From: a virus
Lineage: Duplodnaviria > Caudoviricetes
Strand: one strand, 5' to 3'
DNA length: 64,000 bases
IMG/VR virus record: IMGVR_UViG_3300022661_000051
Under the pieces are notes generated by a model. The model saw only the letters and a list, made by a program, of their open reading frames with translations, did not search any database and was not told the origin of the DNA. Positions 35,378 through 58,904 of this stretch are shown here, piece by piece; the stretch's first letter is position 1, and the number at the start of each line of letters is the position of its first letter. A program made the translations under genes and the position numbers.

Positions 35378-36991
35378 ATGGCTATTTTTACTGAATCAGA
35401 GCTTAATGATCTCTTTGAAGAGAAATGCAAGCCGGACTTAGATAATAAAGCTGATAATGGTGATACTAAAGCTTCTAAAAAGAGTCCTAAGAATACAATG
35501 AAACTTCGTCTTAAAGAAGACGGAGATCTTGTGGATGATGATATAAATAATGACGGTTATACTTCTATCGAGGAAACAATTGATATTAACGGTAAGAAGT
35601 ATCGTCTCATGACAAAATCCGACGAAAAGAATGCCGCTGAAAGGGGTATTTCTGTTAAGGATGCTGTTATTATAAACGGCAAGAAATATATCTATGATCA
35701 GAAATCCCAGAAGGCCTATGATAGAAAGCATCCTATCGAAACTCTCTCAAGAAAGACAGGTGCTGCTCTTGGAGCTGCTGGAGGTGCAGTTATCGGAGGC
35801 GCTGGAGGTGCTGTTGCTGGTGCCGCTCTTGGTACAACAGCCGGATCTCTTACCGGAGCTGTAATTGGTTCTACAACTGGAGGTACAGCTGCTACTAGAG
35901 CTATTCGTAAGGTAACAGATATTCCTGACAAAGTTTCTAAGAAAATAAAGAAAGAAGAATTCGACTTCAGAACAGTATACAGAGATCCTGGATATACTGC
36001 TGCAATGAATGAGTTCTTTGATATTGATGATCATCAGAACAGGCGCATTATGCTTGCGATCAATGAAGATGACCAGAGTAAAGTTCTTGTAGGTCTTACT
36101 GCAAAGCTTTATGAAAATATCATCGATAAGGTAGATGATATCGACTTCGGTGAGATTCCTCTCACTAAGGGTGAGTTCACAAAACTTCCTAATTATACAA
36201 CAATCATGGATTCTCTCTCTACAATGAGAAATCTCCTTGTTGAATATAAACAGGATACTGCTCCTGTAGACACAATCTATAATGCAGTGTCAAATATTGT
36301 TGATATGACACCTACATGGAAAAAGGCATATAGTCTCAATGTTGAACTTCCGATGGTAATGTATAATACTATCGCTCTTTCAATTATTGAAGCTACAAGT
36401 TATATGATATCTATGTGTGTTGAGTACATTAAGTCTCCTTCACATGATACATTCCAGATTACAATAGATAAAACTGCTCTCAATAAGACAAAGGGTCATA
36501 TGGTCTTCGAGAATCTTCAGAAGTTTAATGATGCTTGTCGTAAGGGACAGGTCGAAAAGGCTATGGATTATGTAATTAAAGAAAACTCAAAAGGCTTCGG
36601 TGGTATGGAAATCGGCGCTGGTGCAGCTATCGCTGGAGTTACTTTACTTCTCTTCTGTATAATTCCGATTATAAGAGAGCTCATCTTCTTGTTCTACTAT
36701 TCAAGAGTGAGTGTATCTGAGTATTTTGAGGCTCAGGCTAGTATGCTTCAGGTTAATGCATATAATGTGGAGAATAATCGTCCTGATCTTACAAAAGAAC
36801 AGAAAAAGAATATTTCTTCTAAACAGATGAAGATTGCTGAAAAGTTCAGAAACTTCAGCAATAAGATCAGCATCGATTGTAAGGAAGCTGAAAAGAAAGC
36901 TTCTAAAGAGATGGCTACTTCTAATAAGAAATATAAAGTTGAAGATGTCGTTGATACAATGCCAGATTCAGCTAGTAGTGCTCTCTTCTAA
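35378..36991 (+). CDS. putative virion (head/ejection) protein with glycine-zipper and hydrophobic segment
   Basis: MAIFT N-terminus; GAALGAAGGAVIGGAGG zipper; hydrophobic IGAGAAIAGVTLLLFCIIPII. Confidence 0.6.
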   Translation: MAIFTESELNDLFEEKCKPDLDNKADNGDTKASKKSPKNTMKLRLKEDGDLVDDDINNDGYTSIEETIDINGKKYRLMTKSDEKNAAERGISVKDAVIINGKKYIYDQKSQKAYDRKHPIETLSRKTGAALGAAGGAVIGGAGGAVAGAALGTTAGSLTGAVIGSTTGGTAATRAIRKVTDIPDKVSKKIKKEEFDFRTVYRDPGYTAAMNEFFDIDDHQNRRIMLAINEDDQSKVLVGLTAKLYENIIDKVDDIDFGEIPLTKGEFTKLPNYTTIMDSLSTMRNLLVEYKQDTAPVDTIYNAVSNIVDMTPTWKKAYSLNVELPMVMYNTIALSIIEATSYMISMCVEYIKSPSHDTFQITIDKTALNKTKGHMVFENLQKFNDACRKGQVEKAMDYVIKENSKGFGGMEIGAGAAIAGVTLLLFCIIPIIRELIFLFYYSRVSVSEYFEAQASMLQVNAYNVENNRPDLTKEQKKNISSKQMKIAEKFRNFSNKISIDCKEAEKKASKEMATSNKKYKVEDVVDTMPDSASSALF

Positions 36992-52429: not shown

Positions 52430-55201
52430 TCACTTTAAGAAATTTAATAATGCTTTAGCTGAATACTTGAGGGTATTATGAGTAATCTTAACACTATGAT
52501 CCGAGAATGGTGTATTATGATAATACTCAGCAAAGTTGAATGCTTTATCGTACTTTGTTAAGTTAGAGAAGTTCTGTGTAAAGATATTCTTAGCCATTGC
52601 CCTATTACGAACCAACTCGTCATATCTTTCTTTTTTGATATTTTTCTTTGTCATTTCCTTCTCAATAGAATCTATCAGAAACCATAATCTTGCAAGTTCA
52701 TACTTTATTCCCTCAAGATCTGTAGCGTTTCGATAAGCTTCAAGAAGCTGTGCGGTTTTATCAATCTCATCACCATAATCGATATTACCCATACGACACT
52801 TATAGATAATGAGATTACCGTCCTCATCGAATTCTACGGGGAATTTCTTCTGTTCATTAACAAAAGTAAAAGATTCTGATACTTTATTATCAGATTTGTG
52901 CCATGTCATCTCCTGACGATCTTCATCAATGTCTTTAGATAATACAAATCCAAGTCGTTCATATAATGCGATAGCGCTTGTGTTTTTCTTATATACATTC
53001 AAAACTAACTTGTCGTTGTTTGATTGTAGAGTTTTGATAATATCAGTCCCTATACCTTTACCTCTATGCTTGTTTGTTATATAAATTTCATCGATAAATT
53101 TCGCATCATTCTTAGGATAAACAAGCAATGATCCAGCTTTATCTTTACCGACGTATATAACTTTATATTTTGAAAGTTGAGCTCTTGTTTCTCTGCTACA
53201 ATAGAAGTTTATATCTTCTAATAACTGAGGATTATTCTTTGGAGCATATTTTACAATAGTATCATATTTCCATTTATATAAGATAGAGATGTCGTCTTCT
53301 GTTGCATGTTTTAAGGTGTATCCCTTTCTATCTTCTGCGAAATATTTAAGATCCTGTAAAGCTTCAAGTATATTTTCATCATATACAGATTCGTTGATAC
53401 TTAATGTATCTTTGTTCTTCTTAAGAAATGAGATCTGTCTTTTAACTTTTACTCCATTATACTTAGGAGCTATACCATAGTATACTTCAAAGATCTTATT
53501 CGGTCTTGTCTTTGCTCCATTGTAAATATCGCTTGGAGCTGGGATTTGCTGATCTCCAACGAGATTTATATCGCCAGACTTTAATACAGTATCTACAAAT
53601 GTACTACAAACCTGCTGGTACTGATCATTGCTTGCTTTATGATTGATATGGAATATCTTATTTGCAAATATTCTAAGATCAAAGTTGGTCTTGTGATTCG
53701 CAAAGTCATAAACTGTTTTCTTAAGCTTAGTAACAACAGGCTTTTCTGCAAAGAATGCAAATACTGAAATTACATTATCTTTGAATGATGAAAGATTTTC
53801 TTTTATGAAGCCCCAGTTATTCTTACGCATATTGAATGAATAAACTTCATTCAGTTCAGGATCGAATGTTATACTAGCGTGTGAATACTCTGACTTGGTA
53901 ACAAACTTTATACCCTGTGATATAACAGGAGTTTTACCCTTTGTCAGAACTAAGAATACTGGTTCATAGGTATCGTCAACAGCTTCATTCAATTCTTCTT
54001 CAGAAAGTTCTGGAATTGAATCAAGCTTAATAAAATGATCGACTGGATAATTTGCCTGAATAAGACACTTTATTCTTGAGGATGCATATTTTCTGTTAAA
54101 CTCATAATCGATTTCTGGGTTCCATCCGAGCTCGAGAATAGATTGTTTTCTTGCTAATATCTTTTCCTTATCTCCAGATTCTTTAATCTTATCGTAGTCT
54201 GAATATAACTTTCTCATAGTAGCTACCCATTCTTTACGATAATCTTCGAATACATGATCTTTACACATATCTTTATAAGAATCAAACCACAAAGGAATAG
54301 ATATATCTCCAACAAGTTTATCATTATCAGGATGATCAGAGTATTTGTTATTGTTGCCATACACTCCAAGATCAATCATTTCTTCTGGAGTGAAGTATGG
54401 TGTATCTACAAATAAAGCATCTCTTCTTTTCGAAGACTCATTTAACTTCTTTCTATATCTATTTTCTGCACACTGAATAACAAATGAATTCTCACCTAAT
54501 GGAGATTTCTCAACAGTAGTTTCATCTGCAGAATTTAAAAGTTCAGATTTTAATTTATTATATCTCTCCTGATTAGAAATTCCATATAACTGACGAGATA
54601 CATCGTCAGATTTTCTCATTATTTCATTAGATTGAGATCTGAATTCGTTGTACTGTTTTTCGAGATCTTCAAGTTTCTCACCAGCAGTGTTACCGTTCAA
54701 TCCTGCAATTATATTATAATTAGACGTTTGGTCGTACATCTTAGCATAATCGTCTGCAGTTTCAGGGTATTGATCTTTTGGTTCTACAAGATTTATACGA
54801 TCAGATTCGTCAAGAGTAACAGCATCCGGTAATTCAATGGTATCGAACGTATGATCTTCGTAACCTTTAACATCATCCTTAATCAGATTTATAAGATGAG
54901 GTTCGATATCATCAGAAAAGTTATCTGTTTTAATCTTGTTTCGATTATTATCATTTCCAGCGAGCGAAGATGTCTTCTTTTCAAGTTTAGTCTTGATATC
55001 TTCATAATGCTGCTGATTAGTTTTATTCCATATTTCAATAGATTTATCATCGCTTAATCTTTGCTGTCTCGGTGTCATAAGAGACAAAAAATTATTCCAT
55101 TGCTGTTCGAGATCTTCTATATCATCTGTATCTTTGATGATGATATAATTTGTGTCTCTCATATAAGCATTCGCAAGGATATTTTTATAGTTATCCGACA
55201 T
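52430..55201 (-). CDS. multidomain late (putative virion) protein with permuted papain-like NlpC/P60 and GNAT acetyltransferase domains
   Basis: YSHASITFD...QVCSTFVDTVL (His before Cys); FIDEIYI..HRGKGIGT..LNVYKKNTSAIALYERLGF; late promoter at 55230-55241. Confidence 0.8.
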   Translation of the reverse strand: MSDNYKNILANAYMRDTNYIIIKDTDDIEDLEQQWNNFLSLMTPRQQRLSDDKSIEIWNKTNQQHYEDIKTKLEKKTSSLAGNDNNRNKIKTDNFSDDIEPHLINLIKDDVKGYEDHTFDTIELPDAVTLDESDRINLVEPKDQYPETADDYAKMYDQTSNYNIIAGLNGNTAGEKLEDLEKQYNEFRSQSNEIMRKSDDVSRQLYGISNQERYNKLKSELLNSADETTVEKSPLGENSFVIQCAENRYRKKLNESSKRRDALFVDTPYFTPEEMIDLGVYGNNNKYSDHPDNDKLVGDISIPLWFDSYKDMCKDHVFEDYRKEWVATMRKLYSDYDKIKESGDKEKILARKQSILELGWNPEIDYEFNRKYASSRIKCLIQANYPVDHFIKLDSIPELSEEELNEAVDDTYEPVFLVLTKGKTPVISQGIKFVTKSEYSHASITFDPELNEVYSFNMRKNNWGFIKENLSSFKDNVISVFAFFAEKPVVTKLKKTVYDFANHKTNFDLRIFANKIFHINHKASNDQYQQVCSTFVDTVLKSGDINLVGDQQIPAPSDIYNGAKTRPNKIFEVYYGIAPKYNGVKVKRQISFLKKNKDTLSINESVYDENILEALQDLKYFAEDRKGYTLKHATEDDISILYKWKYDTIVKYAPKNNPQLLEDINFYCSRETRAQLSKYKVIYVGKDKAGSLLVYPKNDAKFIDEIYITNKHRGKGIGTDIIKTLQSNNDKLVLNVYKKNTSAIALYERLGFVLSKDIDEDRQEMTWHKSDNKVSESFTFVNEQKKFPVEFDEDGNLIIYKCRMGNIDYGDEIDKTAQLLEAYRNATDLEGIKYELARLWFLIDSIEKEMTKKNIKKERYDELVRNRAMAKNIFTQNFSNLTKYDKAFNFAEYYHNTPFSDHSVKITHNTLKYSAKALLNFLK

Positions 55202-55278: not shown

Positions 55279-55728
55279 TTAGTCGGCCCCTTCTATCTTC
55301 TTCTGGATAGCATTCTTGAAATCGAGAAATTCTTTTTCCTCGATATATCTATCGGGTAACAGAATTCCTTCTATTAAGCTTTTCAGCTCGTCTTTCGAAT
55401 TTGCAAAATGTAAATCTGAAAATTTACATTCAGGAATGTTGTTGATAAAAACAACATCATTTTCGATAAATATATTATCTTCATCTATATTTATCTTATT
55501 CTGACATATTTTCGTTCCAGAGGTGATAGACTCTGCAACGATAAATTTGTCATTAATTGGTTGAAACAATGGGAGTATCGATGGACATGTCATATGGGTC
55601 GGTGTAACGGTATCGATACCCGCTTTTAGGATAAGGACCACATCCACGAGACTCACCCTTGAGAGGACGATTATGTTTCTTGCTGTGTTGCGAGTAGCAA
55701 TCGCAATTTTATACATCGGCTTTTTCAT
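55279..55728 (-). CDS. hypothetical early protein
   Basis: 149 aa; AAGGAGG RBS; early-like promoter at 55785-55800. Confidence 0.75.
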   Translation of the reverse strand: MKKPMYKIAIATRNTARNIIVLSRVSLVDVVLILKAGIDTVTPTHMTCPSILPLFQPINDKFIVAESITSGTKICQNKINIDEDNIFIENDVVFINNIPECKFSDLHFANSKDELKSLIEGILLPDRYIEEKEFLDFKNAIQKKIEGAD

Positions 55729-55800: not shown

Positions 55801-55831
55801 TAAATACAATTTTTAAAAATGACGGAAATGA

Positions 55832-55854
55832 CCGAGTAGCATAATGCTACTCGG
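55832..55854 (-). terminator. terminator hairpin closing the orphan transcript
   Basis: CCGAGTAGCA-taa-TGCTACTCGG. Confidence 0.7.
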
Positions 55855-56199
55855 ACAAATTTCATATATCATCATAAAAAGATAAAATTCGGCTTATCGT
55901 CGAGACGACTGTAGATTTACAGGTCTTCTCCCATAACTCTGTAAATCAAGCGTCTCAACGATATAGATTATGTTGTTCTCCCCAAAACAAGTAAGCCCAA
56001 CAAAATAAAGCCCTTGTTCTGGAGAACGCTGGAATGGACCGTAAAAATATTTCTCTCTTAGCATTAAGTAACGAATTTCAATAATACGAACGGTAAGCGC
56101 AAAAAAACGTTTTAGTGAAAGCGAAACCGAACTAATAATTCAAATCGTAAGATTCCAATCACGTCTGATTTATCAGAAGCTTTGAGCGATTATTTTTAC
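55855..56199 (-). ncRNA. candidate structured non-coding RNA of unknown class (~350 nt)
   Basis: Own late-type promoter and terminator, no ORF of 60 aa or more, several nested helices, one G.U pair that works only on the minus strand. Confidence 0.6.
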
Positions 56200-56210
56200 A
56201 TTATATTGTT
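56199..56210 (-). promoter_or_regulatory. late-type promoter of the candidate ncRNA
   Basis: AACA-ATATAA-TG; predicted +1 is G at 56199. Confidence 0.6.
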
Positions 56211-56226
56211 ATATAGTGTGTAATTA

Positions 56227-57318
56227 TTAATTACTACCATTGTTACCTTCAGTATAATAAATAGAATCGTGAACGGCTTCAAGATGTAAAGCGTATTTAC
56301 GAATCTCCTCCTGAGCATGTTCATCAGTTCTAAGAGCCAAGAATGAGATAAGAGAATCGAGACTAAATGTCATATAGATTCTCTTACATAATACATTAGA
56401 AGGTAAGAAGGCTCTTGCATCTTCCTTCTTAAATTTGGATTTAAGAAGCTGCGGATAAATAGACATAAGTTCTGCCGCAAGTTTATCCGGAGTCATATTA
56501 ACTTCCTTGCCGAAGATCTTGATATTGATTGTCTTGTCCTTGATAGAATCGGGTACATAGAAATCGTTACCGGTGTAGTTTACATAACGCTGAGACTCCT
56601 GTGTAATTCCGTTACGATGTCTTACAAGCTGATGAGTGGCAGTTCTTGACATATTCTTGAAGAGAACAGTAAATGGAAGCGTAGTTAATACTTCTGTAGG
56701 TGTAAATCCATATTTGAAAGCGAAATCGATCATTTCGTCCTTATATTCCTTTGAAGGGTATCCATATACTTTAATTTGTGGAGTTTCGATAAGATTCTGA
56801 GTTTCGTTTACATCTTTACAATCGTCTTCAGGACTTAAGATGACATCAACAAAACGATTCATATCGATTCTTCCGGTATGCTCAATACCACAATAGAATT
56901 CTTTTACTGTATGATCGTAAAGAAGAGACATAATATCAGTGAATATCTCGCCATCAAGATTCTCAACCTTTGCTACAAGATCAATAAATCCTCTTATAGA
57001 ACCGCCGATAAGAAGATTAAATGTATTGTCTTCATTCACAGTCATATAATGTCTCAAATACTGTGTTCCTGCGAAGATATCAGCGAGTTCAGGATACTGG
57101 CTTGTAGGTCTGTTAACAAGCATCATAGAGAGGTATCCGTGTTCGAGAACAGAACCGTGACCATGTTTTACTCTCTTAGAGATATACTCTTTCTTTTCTT
57201 CATAAGTAAGGTCTTTAGTGTTATCATAACATGCAGTACATGCTTCATAAATAATGCTAACCGCATCGTTATAATATAACATCATTGAGGATTCTTTGTT
57301 TGTGAATTCAAGTTTCAT
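56227..57318 (-). CDS. thyX: flavin-dependent thymidylate synthase ThyX (extended, partly duplicated)
   Basis: HGHGSVLEH, SRTATHQLVRHR..QESQRY, EDARAFLP, LRTDEHAQEEIR. Confidence 0.9.
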   Translation of the reverse strand: MKLEFTNKESSMMLYYNDAVSIIYEACTACYDNTKDLTYEEKKEYISKRVKHGHGSVLEHGYLSMMLVNRPTSQYPELADIFAGTQYLRHYMTVNEDNTFNLLIGGSIRGFIDLVAKVENLDGEIFTDIMSLLYDHTVKEFYCGIEHTGRIDMNRFVDVILSPEDDCKDVNETQNLIETPQIKVYGYPSKEYKDEMIDFAFKYGFTPTEVLTTLPFTVLFKNMSRTATHQLVRHRNGITQESQRYVNYTGNDFYVPDSIKDKTINIKIFGKEVNMTPDKLAAELMSIYPQLLKSKFKKEDARAFLPSNVLCKRIYMTFSLDSLISFLALRTDEHAQEEIRKYALHLEAVHDSIYYTEGNNGSN

Positions 57319-58546: not shown

Positions 58547-58558
58547 AACATCTATGTA
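58547..58558 (+). promoter_or_regulatory. late-type promoter firing into the purine-rich repeat
   Basis: AACA-TCTATG-TA. Confidence 0.55.
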
Positions 58559-58706
58559 ATAGAGGAGCAGGGGAAACAGGGAAGGTATTAATAGGAACAG
58601 AGGAAAGAGGGAGCATAATAATAGGAGCAGAGGAGCAAGGGAAGATAATAATAGAGAAAAACTGGAAACAGGGAAATAGGAGCAAGGATATGGGGAGCAT
58701 TATAAT
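58557..58706 (+). repeat. degenerate purine-rich tandem repeat with ~30-bp period and 14 GGA motifs
   Basis: e.g. ataggaacagaggaaagagggagcataata / ataggagcagaggagcaagggaagataata. Confidence 0.85.
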
Positions 58707-58735
58707 AAAATTCCAATTCCAAGACAATTTCCCAT

Positions 58736-58747
58736 AACATTATAGTA
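58736..58747 (+). promoter_or_regulatory. late-type promoter with no downstream ORF
   Basis: AACA-TTATAG-TA. Confidence 0.5.
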
Positions 58748-58823
58748 AGAATAAATTTTTTCATTGTTCATAAAATTCTCTCTGGATTTTATGATTGTCT
58801 CCTTTCAGTTTTGATATATAAAG

Positions 58824-58850
58824 ATAGTCTAGGGATTGTCCCTAGACTAT
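58824..58850. terminator. hairpin / palindrome 1
   Basis: ATAGTCTAGGGA-ttg-TCCCTAGACTAT. Confidence 0.6.
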
Positions 58851-58904
58851 TCTTCTGCCAAATTATTCTATATACTTATTATTCTAATATAATAATCGAT
58901 AAAG

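Follow-up and report, generated by a model that had tools for sequence, protein, structure and literature searches.

We describe here a predicted late non-coding RNA of an uncultured jumbo phage, encoded on the minus strand of a 64,000-nucleotide stretch (the window) that forms part of a complete 230.7-kb virus record (IMGVR_UViG_3300022661_000051; G000 in what follows) bearing direct terminal repeats. Approximately 80% of the length of the RNA is recognizable as the reverse complement of a tyrosine integrase gene from a mobile element of Ruminococcus, so that the term orphan, used for it in an earlier note on this DNA, no longer applies. Because the RNA, itself a predicted transcript, is built of reversed pieces of the integrase gene, it is probably a silencing weapon against the element, and with modest confidence we favor the view that it is a captured antisense RNA that shuts down the xis-int-primase operon of the element late in infection. 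What can be read from the sequences is descent, rearrangement, a conserved promoter and fold, and complementarity.

Reversed Pieces of an Integrase Gene

A 20-base word that is invariant in the RNA occurs at a single place among 185,579 prokaryote genomes, on a contig of a Ruminococcus metagenome-assembled genome (MAG). One match is expected by chance in a search of this sort; the flanks also align, however, and nhmmer places three flanking segments on the antisense strand of a gene for a 404-aa tyrosine integrase, with E values of 4e-31, 9e-18 and 1e-13. The match resolves into five blocks with perfect runs of 26-32 nt and, depending on the allele, a total of 231-256 identical bases. They are listed in their order along the RNA, with deletions lying between them.

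55826-56199, minus strand: predicted RNA, ∼370-375 nt (343-380 nt in other strains)
56067-56196, minus strand: block 1 (RNA nt 4-133), antisense to integrase nt 861-729; 99/129 identical, 110/132 in other alleles
56031-56053, minus strand: block 2 (RNA nt 147-169), antisense to integrase nt 1085-1063; 21/23 identical, 14/17 in the other haplotype
56006-56032, minus strand: block 3 (RNA nt 168-194), antisense to integrase nt 603-578; 23/26 identical; 5' arm of the middle hairpin
55966-56005, minus strand: block 4 (RNA nt 195-234), antisense to integrase nt 544-505; 36/40 identical, with a 26-nt perfect run
55873-55960, minus strand: block 5 (RNA nt 240-327), antisense to integrase nt 400-310; 69/87 identical, up to 80/91 in other alleles

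The promoter is oriented so as to transcribe the antisense strand, with its +1 at the edge of block 1, which makes the 5' domain of the RNA and carries a variable apical loop. Block 2 is out of collinear order and gives the 3' strand that closes this domain, block 4 contributes the 3' arm of the middle hairpin together with a linker, and block 5 is the long hairpin, whose loop covers integrase codons 121-125. The direction of transfer, from element to phage, is clear because the integrase is an intact family member (with homologues at 46-99%) and the phage copy has stops, frameshifts and deletions. An ancestor of the phage took up ∼550-800 nt of the integrase gene, reversed, behind a late promoter, with deletions and the relocation of one block to follow. 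No other comparable match to the element was found in this phage or in seven related phage genomes, in either coding or RNA sequence. The arrangement is also unlike a CRISPR array, in that the blocks are joined without repeats and no Rfam CRISPR repeat is present in the window (cas genes were not searched for). Two other resemblances were set aside: complementarity to the 5' region of 16S rRNA was no better than for shuffles on E. coli rRNA, and a 16S-like motif and an RNase P-like motif in the RNA are explained by integrase codons.

The Late RNA Gene and Its Fold

Eight distinct alleles, collected via thyX homologues and all from strains of the same species, were used to examine the gene; relatives are needed for such a check because the opposite strand folds similarly and the promoter motif is common by chance. 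The principal features are as follows.

56199-56210, minus strand: AR9-type late promoter AACA-N6-TG, predicted +1 at 56199; invariant in the eight alleles
56041-56049, minus strand: 3' strand of the closing helix, pairing with RNA nt 1-9; from fold and alleles
55896-55962, minus strand: long two-part hairpin, 12 bp + 9 bp; outer helix paired in all alleles, with 7 pairs varying
55832-55854, minus strand: 10-bp terminator-like hairpin with a weak U tract; kept in the eight alleles

The late-type promoter pointed out earlier at 56210-56199 fits the AR9 late consensus, AACA-N6-TG with the last base as +1 (PMC5312081), and is the same in all strains. Taken by itself the motif occurs in the window at about the frequency that chance predicts (96 vs 88 expected); a late promoter occupies the same slot after thyX in seven of the nine closest relatives, followed in each case by a folded non-coding unit that differs in sequence and length. 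A 56-codon open reading frame (ORF) at 55894-56064 is frameshifted in relatives, and none of the small ORFs on either strand of the locus is conserved. Promoter, fold and frameshifted ORF support the proposal that the predicted transcript is a late, structured, non-coding RNA without an Rfam family. Infernal returned no match at gathering score in the window or in eight related loci (best sub-threshold score 25 bits), the families covered including tRNA, tmRNA, RNase P, SRP, 6S, C4 and the large orphan RNAs, and ARAGORN and RNase P searches were also without match, as anticipated from the lack of tRNA, tmRNA or RNase P hallmarks. BLAST against isolated phages gave chance matches of 25-50 nt only, pattern scans of viral and metagenome contigs gave 31 loci of which nhmmer recognized none as a homologue, and a DNA search of 23 clade genomes found no sequence homologue of the RNA.

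The RNA strand folds with z = -5.85 and the opposite strand with z = -5.71; because the latter folds almost as well, folding energy alone cannot fix the strand. On the evidence of the alleles the strand is fixed by the promoter and the 12-bp helix. Seven of the 12 pairs in this helix vary and all remain paired, six via G-U and one through a compensatory change, and the G-U changes hold on the minus strand. The 12 + 9-bp hairpin is present as had been proposed. In a model of 80 pairs, 97% of the cells remain paired over the eight alleles, and a shuffle control gave 18/500, a figure to be read with the small number and the relatedness of the sequences in mind.

The helix formed by the first 9 nt and 56041-56049 is likewise present, with a pair probability of 0.93 and flush with the +1. 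Both this helix and the terminator-like hairpin at 55854-55832 are retained in the eight strain alleles, for the most part through changes that preserve pairing. The small 5' hairpin UCUGA-UAAA-UCAGA exists but is weakened in four of the eight. Other parts of the structure put forward in the earlier note do not survive. The helix that was to close a 3' domain (55997-55992/55896-55891) costs 6-10 kcal/mol, has a pair probability of 0, and its first pair is broken in six of eight alleles; GGGAGA, placed in or at the loops of both hairpins, is lost from the long-hairpin loop in several alleles and is base-paired in its other copy; and GUUCUCC, rather than being a spare pseudoknot strand, forms the main middle hairpin with a probability of 0.96-0.99 in six of eight alleles. 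What stands of the structured RNA is thus the promoter, the 5' helix and the long and terminal hairpins, and not the 3' closing helix, the GGGAGA loops or the pseudoknot. The RNA folds, by prediction, into three domains; its 5' end is closed, and a terminator completes the unit. This structure persists even though the locus diverges between haplotypes by 11-15% plus indels, faster than thyX third positions (6-8%), and the alleles are mosaic.

The Donor Element and the Host

The element reads, in order, xis, int, a D5/P4-type primase gene, mobC, a relaxase gene and a copied tRNA-Met 3' end, and upstream of these lies a divergent cargo gene of 361 aa; the start of the primase gene overlaps the integrase stop. 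Its proteins match PF00589, PF12728, PF08706, PF21983 and PF03432, and capsid genes are absent. With an integrase and a relaxase, an attachment site (the tRNA-Met 3' copy) and no conjugation pore, it is by its gene content an integrative mobilizable element. One integrase homologue sits on a 243-kb contig. In a second genome of the genus there is a 64%-identical integrase, after which a gene of similar size takes the primase position, and the cargo is a different one, such that two unclassified cargo genes (L281:3774-4859, minus strand, 361 aa, and L282:5475-6887, minus strand, 470 aa) occupy the same place in two related elements. Both are candidates for anti-phage functions. The tRNA-Met attachment core is found in seven copies in one Ruminococcus genome (G067 contigs C46, C122, C204, C322, C329, C37 and C254), which suggests a heavily used integration site.

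From the origin of the RNA we infer a Ruminococcus-type host for the phage. Matches between the phage and many Ruminococcus genomes were discarded as host evidence, as they derive from an Asp-rich repeat.

Predicted Pairing with the Element mRNAs

By prediction the RNA has what a trans-acting antisense RNA has, namely its own promoter and 3' end, no conserved ORF and, in five blocks with E down to 4e-31, more complementarity to an mRNA than chance would give. The close integrase was compared as DNA in one element allele. Predicted energies of the duplex between RNA and integrase mRNA range from -295 to -352 kcal/mol, vs -95 to -115 kcal/mol for self-folding. The fold of the target, -186 kcal/mol over the whole stretch, cancels most of the duplex gain for the window allele but not for the others.

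The same operon may be the target of another late RNA.

G000:C1 92749-92826, plus strand, ∼4.4 kb past the window end: second late RNA, whose 5' hairpin is formed by an inserted stretch

The first 45 nt of this RNA pair with the primase start codon and first codons at -34 kcal/mol, vs an element background of -13 ± 3 kcal/mol; among 1,458 phage gene starts the strongest pairing reaches -27 kcal/mol. The RNA was one of 13 tried, and its BLAST E value is 0.004. An apparent match of the second RNA to the element cargo gene was rejected as low complexity.

The integrase stretch under the main RNA (nt 295-864; L254:382-951) is itself strongly folded, with z = -7.1 for the sense and -5.8 for the antisense strand relative to synonymous shuffles, whereas the 64%-identical integrase, a neighboring integrase, the primase and the relaxase show no such fold (z between -2.4 and +0.3). 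This stretch could be a hidden RNA gene or an escape structure. In seven near-identical element alleles variability is among the highest at codons 121 and 125 (S/T/M/A and H/Y/F, respectively), the phage alleles have S/A/V/D and H/Y/F at these positions, overlapping the element states, and one phage allele equals the element over 34/35 nt across the codon 121-125 loop. Eight of 18 variable integrase sites lie within the quarter of the protein covered by the RNA, a mild excess. The strong target fold and the loop-codon variation fit an arms race, but also a native structured RNA of the element or a tolerant site.

Neighboring Genes and Other Late RNAs

The large RNA polymerase subunit of the phage is ∼30% identical to its counterparts in LPJP1, SA1, PBS1/AR9 and phiR1-37. 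Because the identity to these named phages is only at this level we assign the phage as AR9-like and uncultured; by its sequence it is an uncultured AR9-like jumbo phage, and it is described as giant and of the rumen type. The gene-free gap of ∼500 bp reported earlier measures 498 nt, from the thyX stop at 56227 to the gene that follows at 55728.

56227-57318, minus strand: thyX, upstream neighbor, marking a clade-wide slot for late non-coding RNAs
55279-55728, minus strand: 149-aa gene, function unassigned, downstream neighbor with its own early-type promoter motif at ∼55805-55793

The 149-aa gene is swapped for a divergent allele in four strains (L118, L120, L130 and L131), and because this early gene beyond the RNA is replaced in them the region around the RNA is a variable island. 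The slot after thyX (L011:4170-4500, L012:4170-4470, L013, L014, L017, L018 and L030) holds unrelated late RNAs of 110-330 nt, those of L011 and L012 having in common several short motifs found in no other viral contig. Elsewhere, in one strain (L134:1000-6108) two ORFs (730 + 953 aa) stand in place of the 1703-aa polymerase subunit, through either an assembly error or a genuine split, and two gaps (G000:C1 174493-174922 and 214059-214483) show group I intron-like core motifs, identified by eye only.

Further late units were noted in the window and in the remainder of the genome. A late small RNA at 58747-58856 (plus strand) complements the ribosome-binding site of a 923-aa gene starting at 55201 with 11 contiguous Watson-Crick bases (-23.8 kcal/mol), a pairing that was not significant in a swap test. 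A promoter-fed purine-rich unit exists in about four related copies (window 58547-58735, plus strand; G000 2884 and 47941, minus strand, and 202533, plus strand), and more promoter-helix-terminator units are located at G000:C1 70899-71182, 73856-74266, 172723-172900, 80714-80808 and 92531-92710 (all plus strand) and at 36001 and 20490 (minus strand). Several of these last units carry clear anti-Shine-Dalgarno and anti-start tracts without a convincing phage target. A search of 161 Ruminococcus genomes with the anti-start tract pattern of another late RNA found nothing.

Discussion

In the scheme that we favor, the non-virion RNA polymerase of the phage would make the RNA from mid-infection. 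The RNA would pair with the xis-int-primase mRNA, plausibly loop-to-loop first at the hairpin over codons 121-125, and the resulting long duplexes would lead to RNase III-type cleavage or a translation block of the message, with the second late RNA masking the primase start codon. The element would then be unable to excise or replicate in the infected cell, and the phage would be rid of a competitor, a hitch-hiker or the carrier of an anti-phage cargo gene. More tentatively, and with distinctly less confidence, we entertain a protein-free acquired RNA defence, whereby pieces of element genes are captured behind late promoters to become folded antisense RNAs that are refreshed by recombination; here at least two RNAs would face one operon, with the element answering by mRNA folding and loop codon change.

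A number of observations weigh against silencing of the element. For the window allele the duplex gain is about the sum of both self-folds. The mismatches to the element allele that was compared show no G-U bias (8-14 G-U vs 9-18 pair-breaking transitions), the integrase start codon is left uncovered by the RNA, and the parallel variation at codons 121 and 125 could simply mark a tolerant site. The cargo gene has no Pfam, PADLOC or Atlas match, so harm to the phage by the element is unsupported, and the element was not found in viral contigs. The host link consists of one short MAG contig pair plus the homologous element in the second genome of the genus, and 25 kb of phage DNA compared with 161 genomes gave no CRISPR spacer match.

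Among the other explanations, the element might make a folded regulatory RNA of its own, either a native antisense RNA or an mRNA switch, with the phage copy acting as a mimic or decoy for an RNA partner or an RNA-binding protein. The hairpins do already exist in the integrase gene, in a stretch that is strongly folded on both strands, and the blocks retained by the phage are mostly those that pair with each other. We nevertheless consider this rather unlikely: the integrase region yielded neither a sigma-70 promoter nor a terminator, folding is at least as strong on the sense as on the antisense strand, and the pairing of the second RNA with the primase start has no such native counterpart. 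It is unlikely, too, that the locus is a decaying relic of integrase DNA that entered a promoter-terminator slot by illegitimate recombination and is transcribed without function. A relic would account for divergence faster than at neighboring third positions, for the tolerated deletions of 13-36 nt, for a fold inherited in part from the integrase gene and for the swapping of the adjacent gene among strains. It sits poorly with a locus kept in every strain contig examined, with the seven varying pairs of the 12-bp helix that all stay paired, with a closing helix built from a moved block and flush with the +1, and with an independent second RNA aimed at the same operon.

A domesticated small RNA, whatever its origin, might instead mask several of the phage's own translation starts. 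Unpaired modules of the RNA match three leaders, those of the RNA polymerase large beta subunit, the 239-aa polymerase subunit and the prohead protease, at -23.6, -23.1 and -22.8 kcal/mol; two modules fit their own genome better than seven relatives (rank 1-3 of 8 genomes for the modules), and anti-start motifs are enriched among 32 predicted late RNAs in eight genomes of the clade (24 vs 6.4 expected). Yet p is 0.07-0.11 per module relative to chimeric leaders, with module boundaries chosen after looking, the leaders hardly vary, in contrast to the modules, which change or are lost, with no covariation, 24 late RNAs show no own-genome advantage (mean rank 4.3-4.7 of 8), and integrase ancestry explains the module sequences. 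We keep this possibility as a minor and unlikely alternative. Very unlikely indeed is action as DNA, in which a patch of homology or a cruciform would recombine with the element DNA or integrase, or else trap or titrate them. The perfect runs of 26-32 nt and the mosaic alleles suggest recombination, but the pair-preserving changes are G-U on the transcribed strand, the folded unit lies flush between promoter and terminator, integrases are not known to use coding sequence as a binding site, and the phage lacks the attachment core of the element. As for the functions offered in the earlier note, a protein sponge had rested on the GGGAGA loops, which are not conserved, and the several conserved, loop-exposed GGA motifs expected of a CsrA/RsmA-type sponge are not seen; nothing in the analysis points to a virion or packaging RNA. 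A translation regulator was the nearest guess, except that the RNA would naturally be aimed at a foreign element's mRNA rather than at one of the phage.

Mobile elements encode cis antisense RNAs of their own, such as RNA-OUT of IS10 and CopA/RNAI of plasmids. These resemble the phage RNA in long complementarity, in loops as the likely first contact and in repression of a mobility or replication gene; they are, however, encoded opposite their target in the same element, whereas here the copy resides in a foreign genome, rearranged and ∼80% identical. In flamenco-type clusters of PIWI-interacting RNAs (piRNAs) and in RNA anti-CRISPRs, pieces of an adversary's sequence in a transcribed locus are turned against that adversary. 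The likeness is one of analogy only, since the phage has a single folded RNA and no Argonaute, Cas or processing machinery is evident (with no search for cas genes). Other late anti-start small RNAs, of AR9-like jumbo phages from gut and rumen, share the promoter class, the 5' helix flush with +1, the terminal hairpin and the post-thyX slot, but are mostly 80-190 nt long with short anti-start tracts, in contrast to 370 nt traceable to a coding gene.

Closest in purpose are the tools of phage ICP1 against PLE, comprising CRISPR-Cas, nucleases and Adi, which subverts the PLE integrase (PMC9638900). There too a lytic phage function is aimed at a resident element, in the case of Adi at the integrase step; the ICP1 tools are proteins or Cas-guided DNA nucleases directed at a satellite, whereas here a protein-free RNA from the element's own gene would act on a relaxase-type mobilizable element for which satellite status is unsupported. 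SviR of PLE (10.1101/2022.04.08.487710) is also a small RNA crossing genomes in a phage-element conflict, but in the opposite direction, from element against phage; it pairs through a short seed and does not descend from the gene that it targets. The c4 antisense RNA of P1/P7 (reviewed in PMC12197685) is a folded phage RNA that represses through base pairing, in this case of the phage's own ant mRNA via short seeds rather than of a target in another replicon via ∼250 complementary bases. By analogy, then, our RNA may work like a long antisense RNA and in purpose like the anti-PLE tools of ICP1, with SviR as the mirror case. A literature search, with most subscription journals outside its coverage, found no phage small RNA that is antisense to an integrase mRNA or built from a rival element's gene.

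Rarely can the source of an orphan phage RNA be traced and a target named, as is the case here; an uncultured phage clade also gains a clue to its host. If the RNA silences the element it would be a new phage counter-measure, the gene of an adversary turned into an antisense weapon; the tools that phages are known to direct at resident elements are proteins or CRISPR-Cas, and the small RNA known to cross genomes works in the opposite direction. The result suggests a general search of orphan phage RNAs against the reverse strand of host mobile-element genes, and it offers an RNA-level arms race that is open to test with two cloned fragments. Were the wider notion of an acquired RNA defence true, a virus would possess a memory that resembles a piRNA cluster and needs no Cas, and other late small RNAs of the clade might be explained in the same way.
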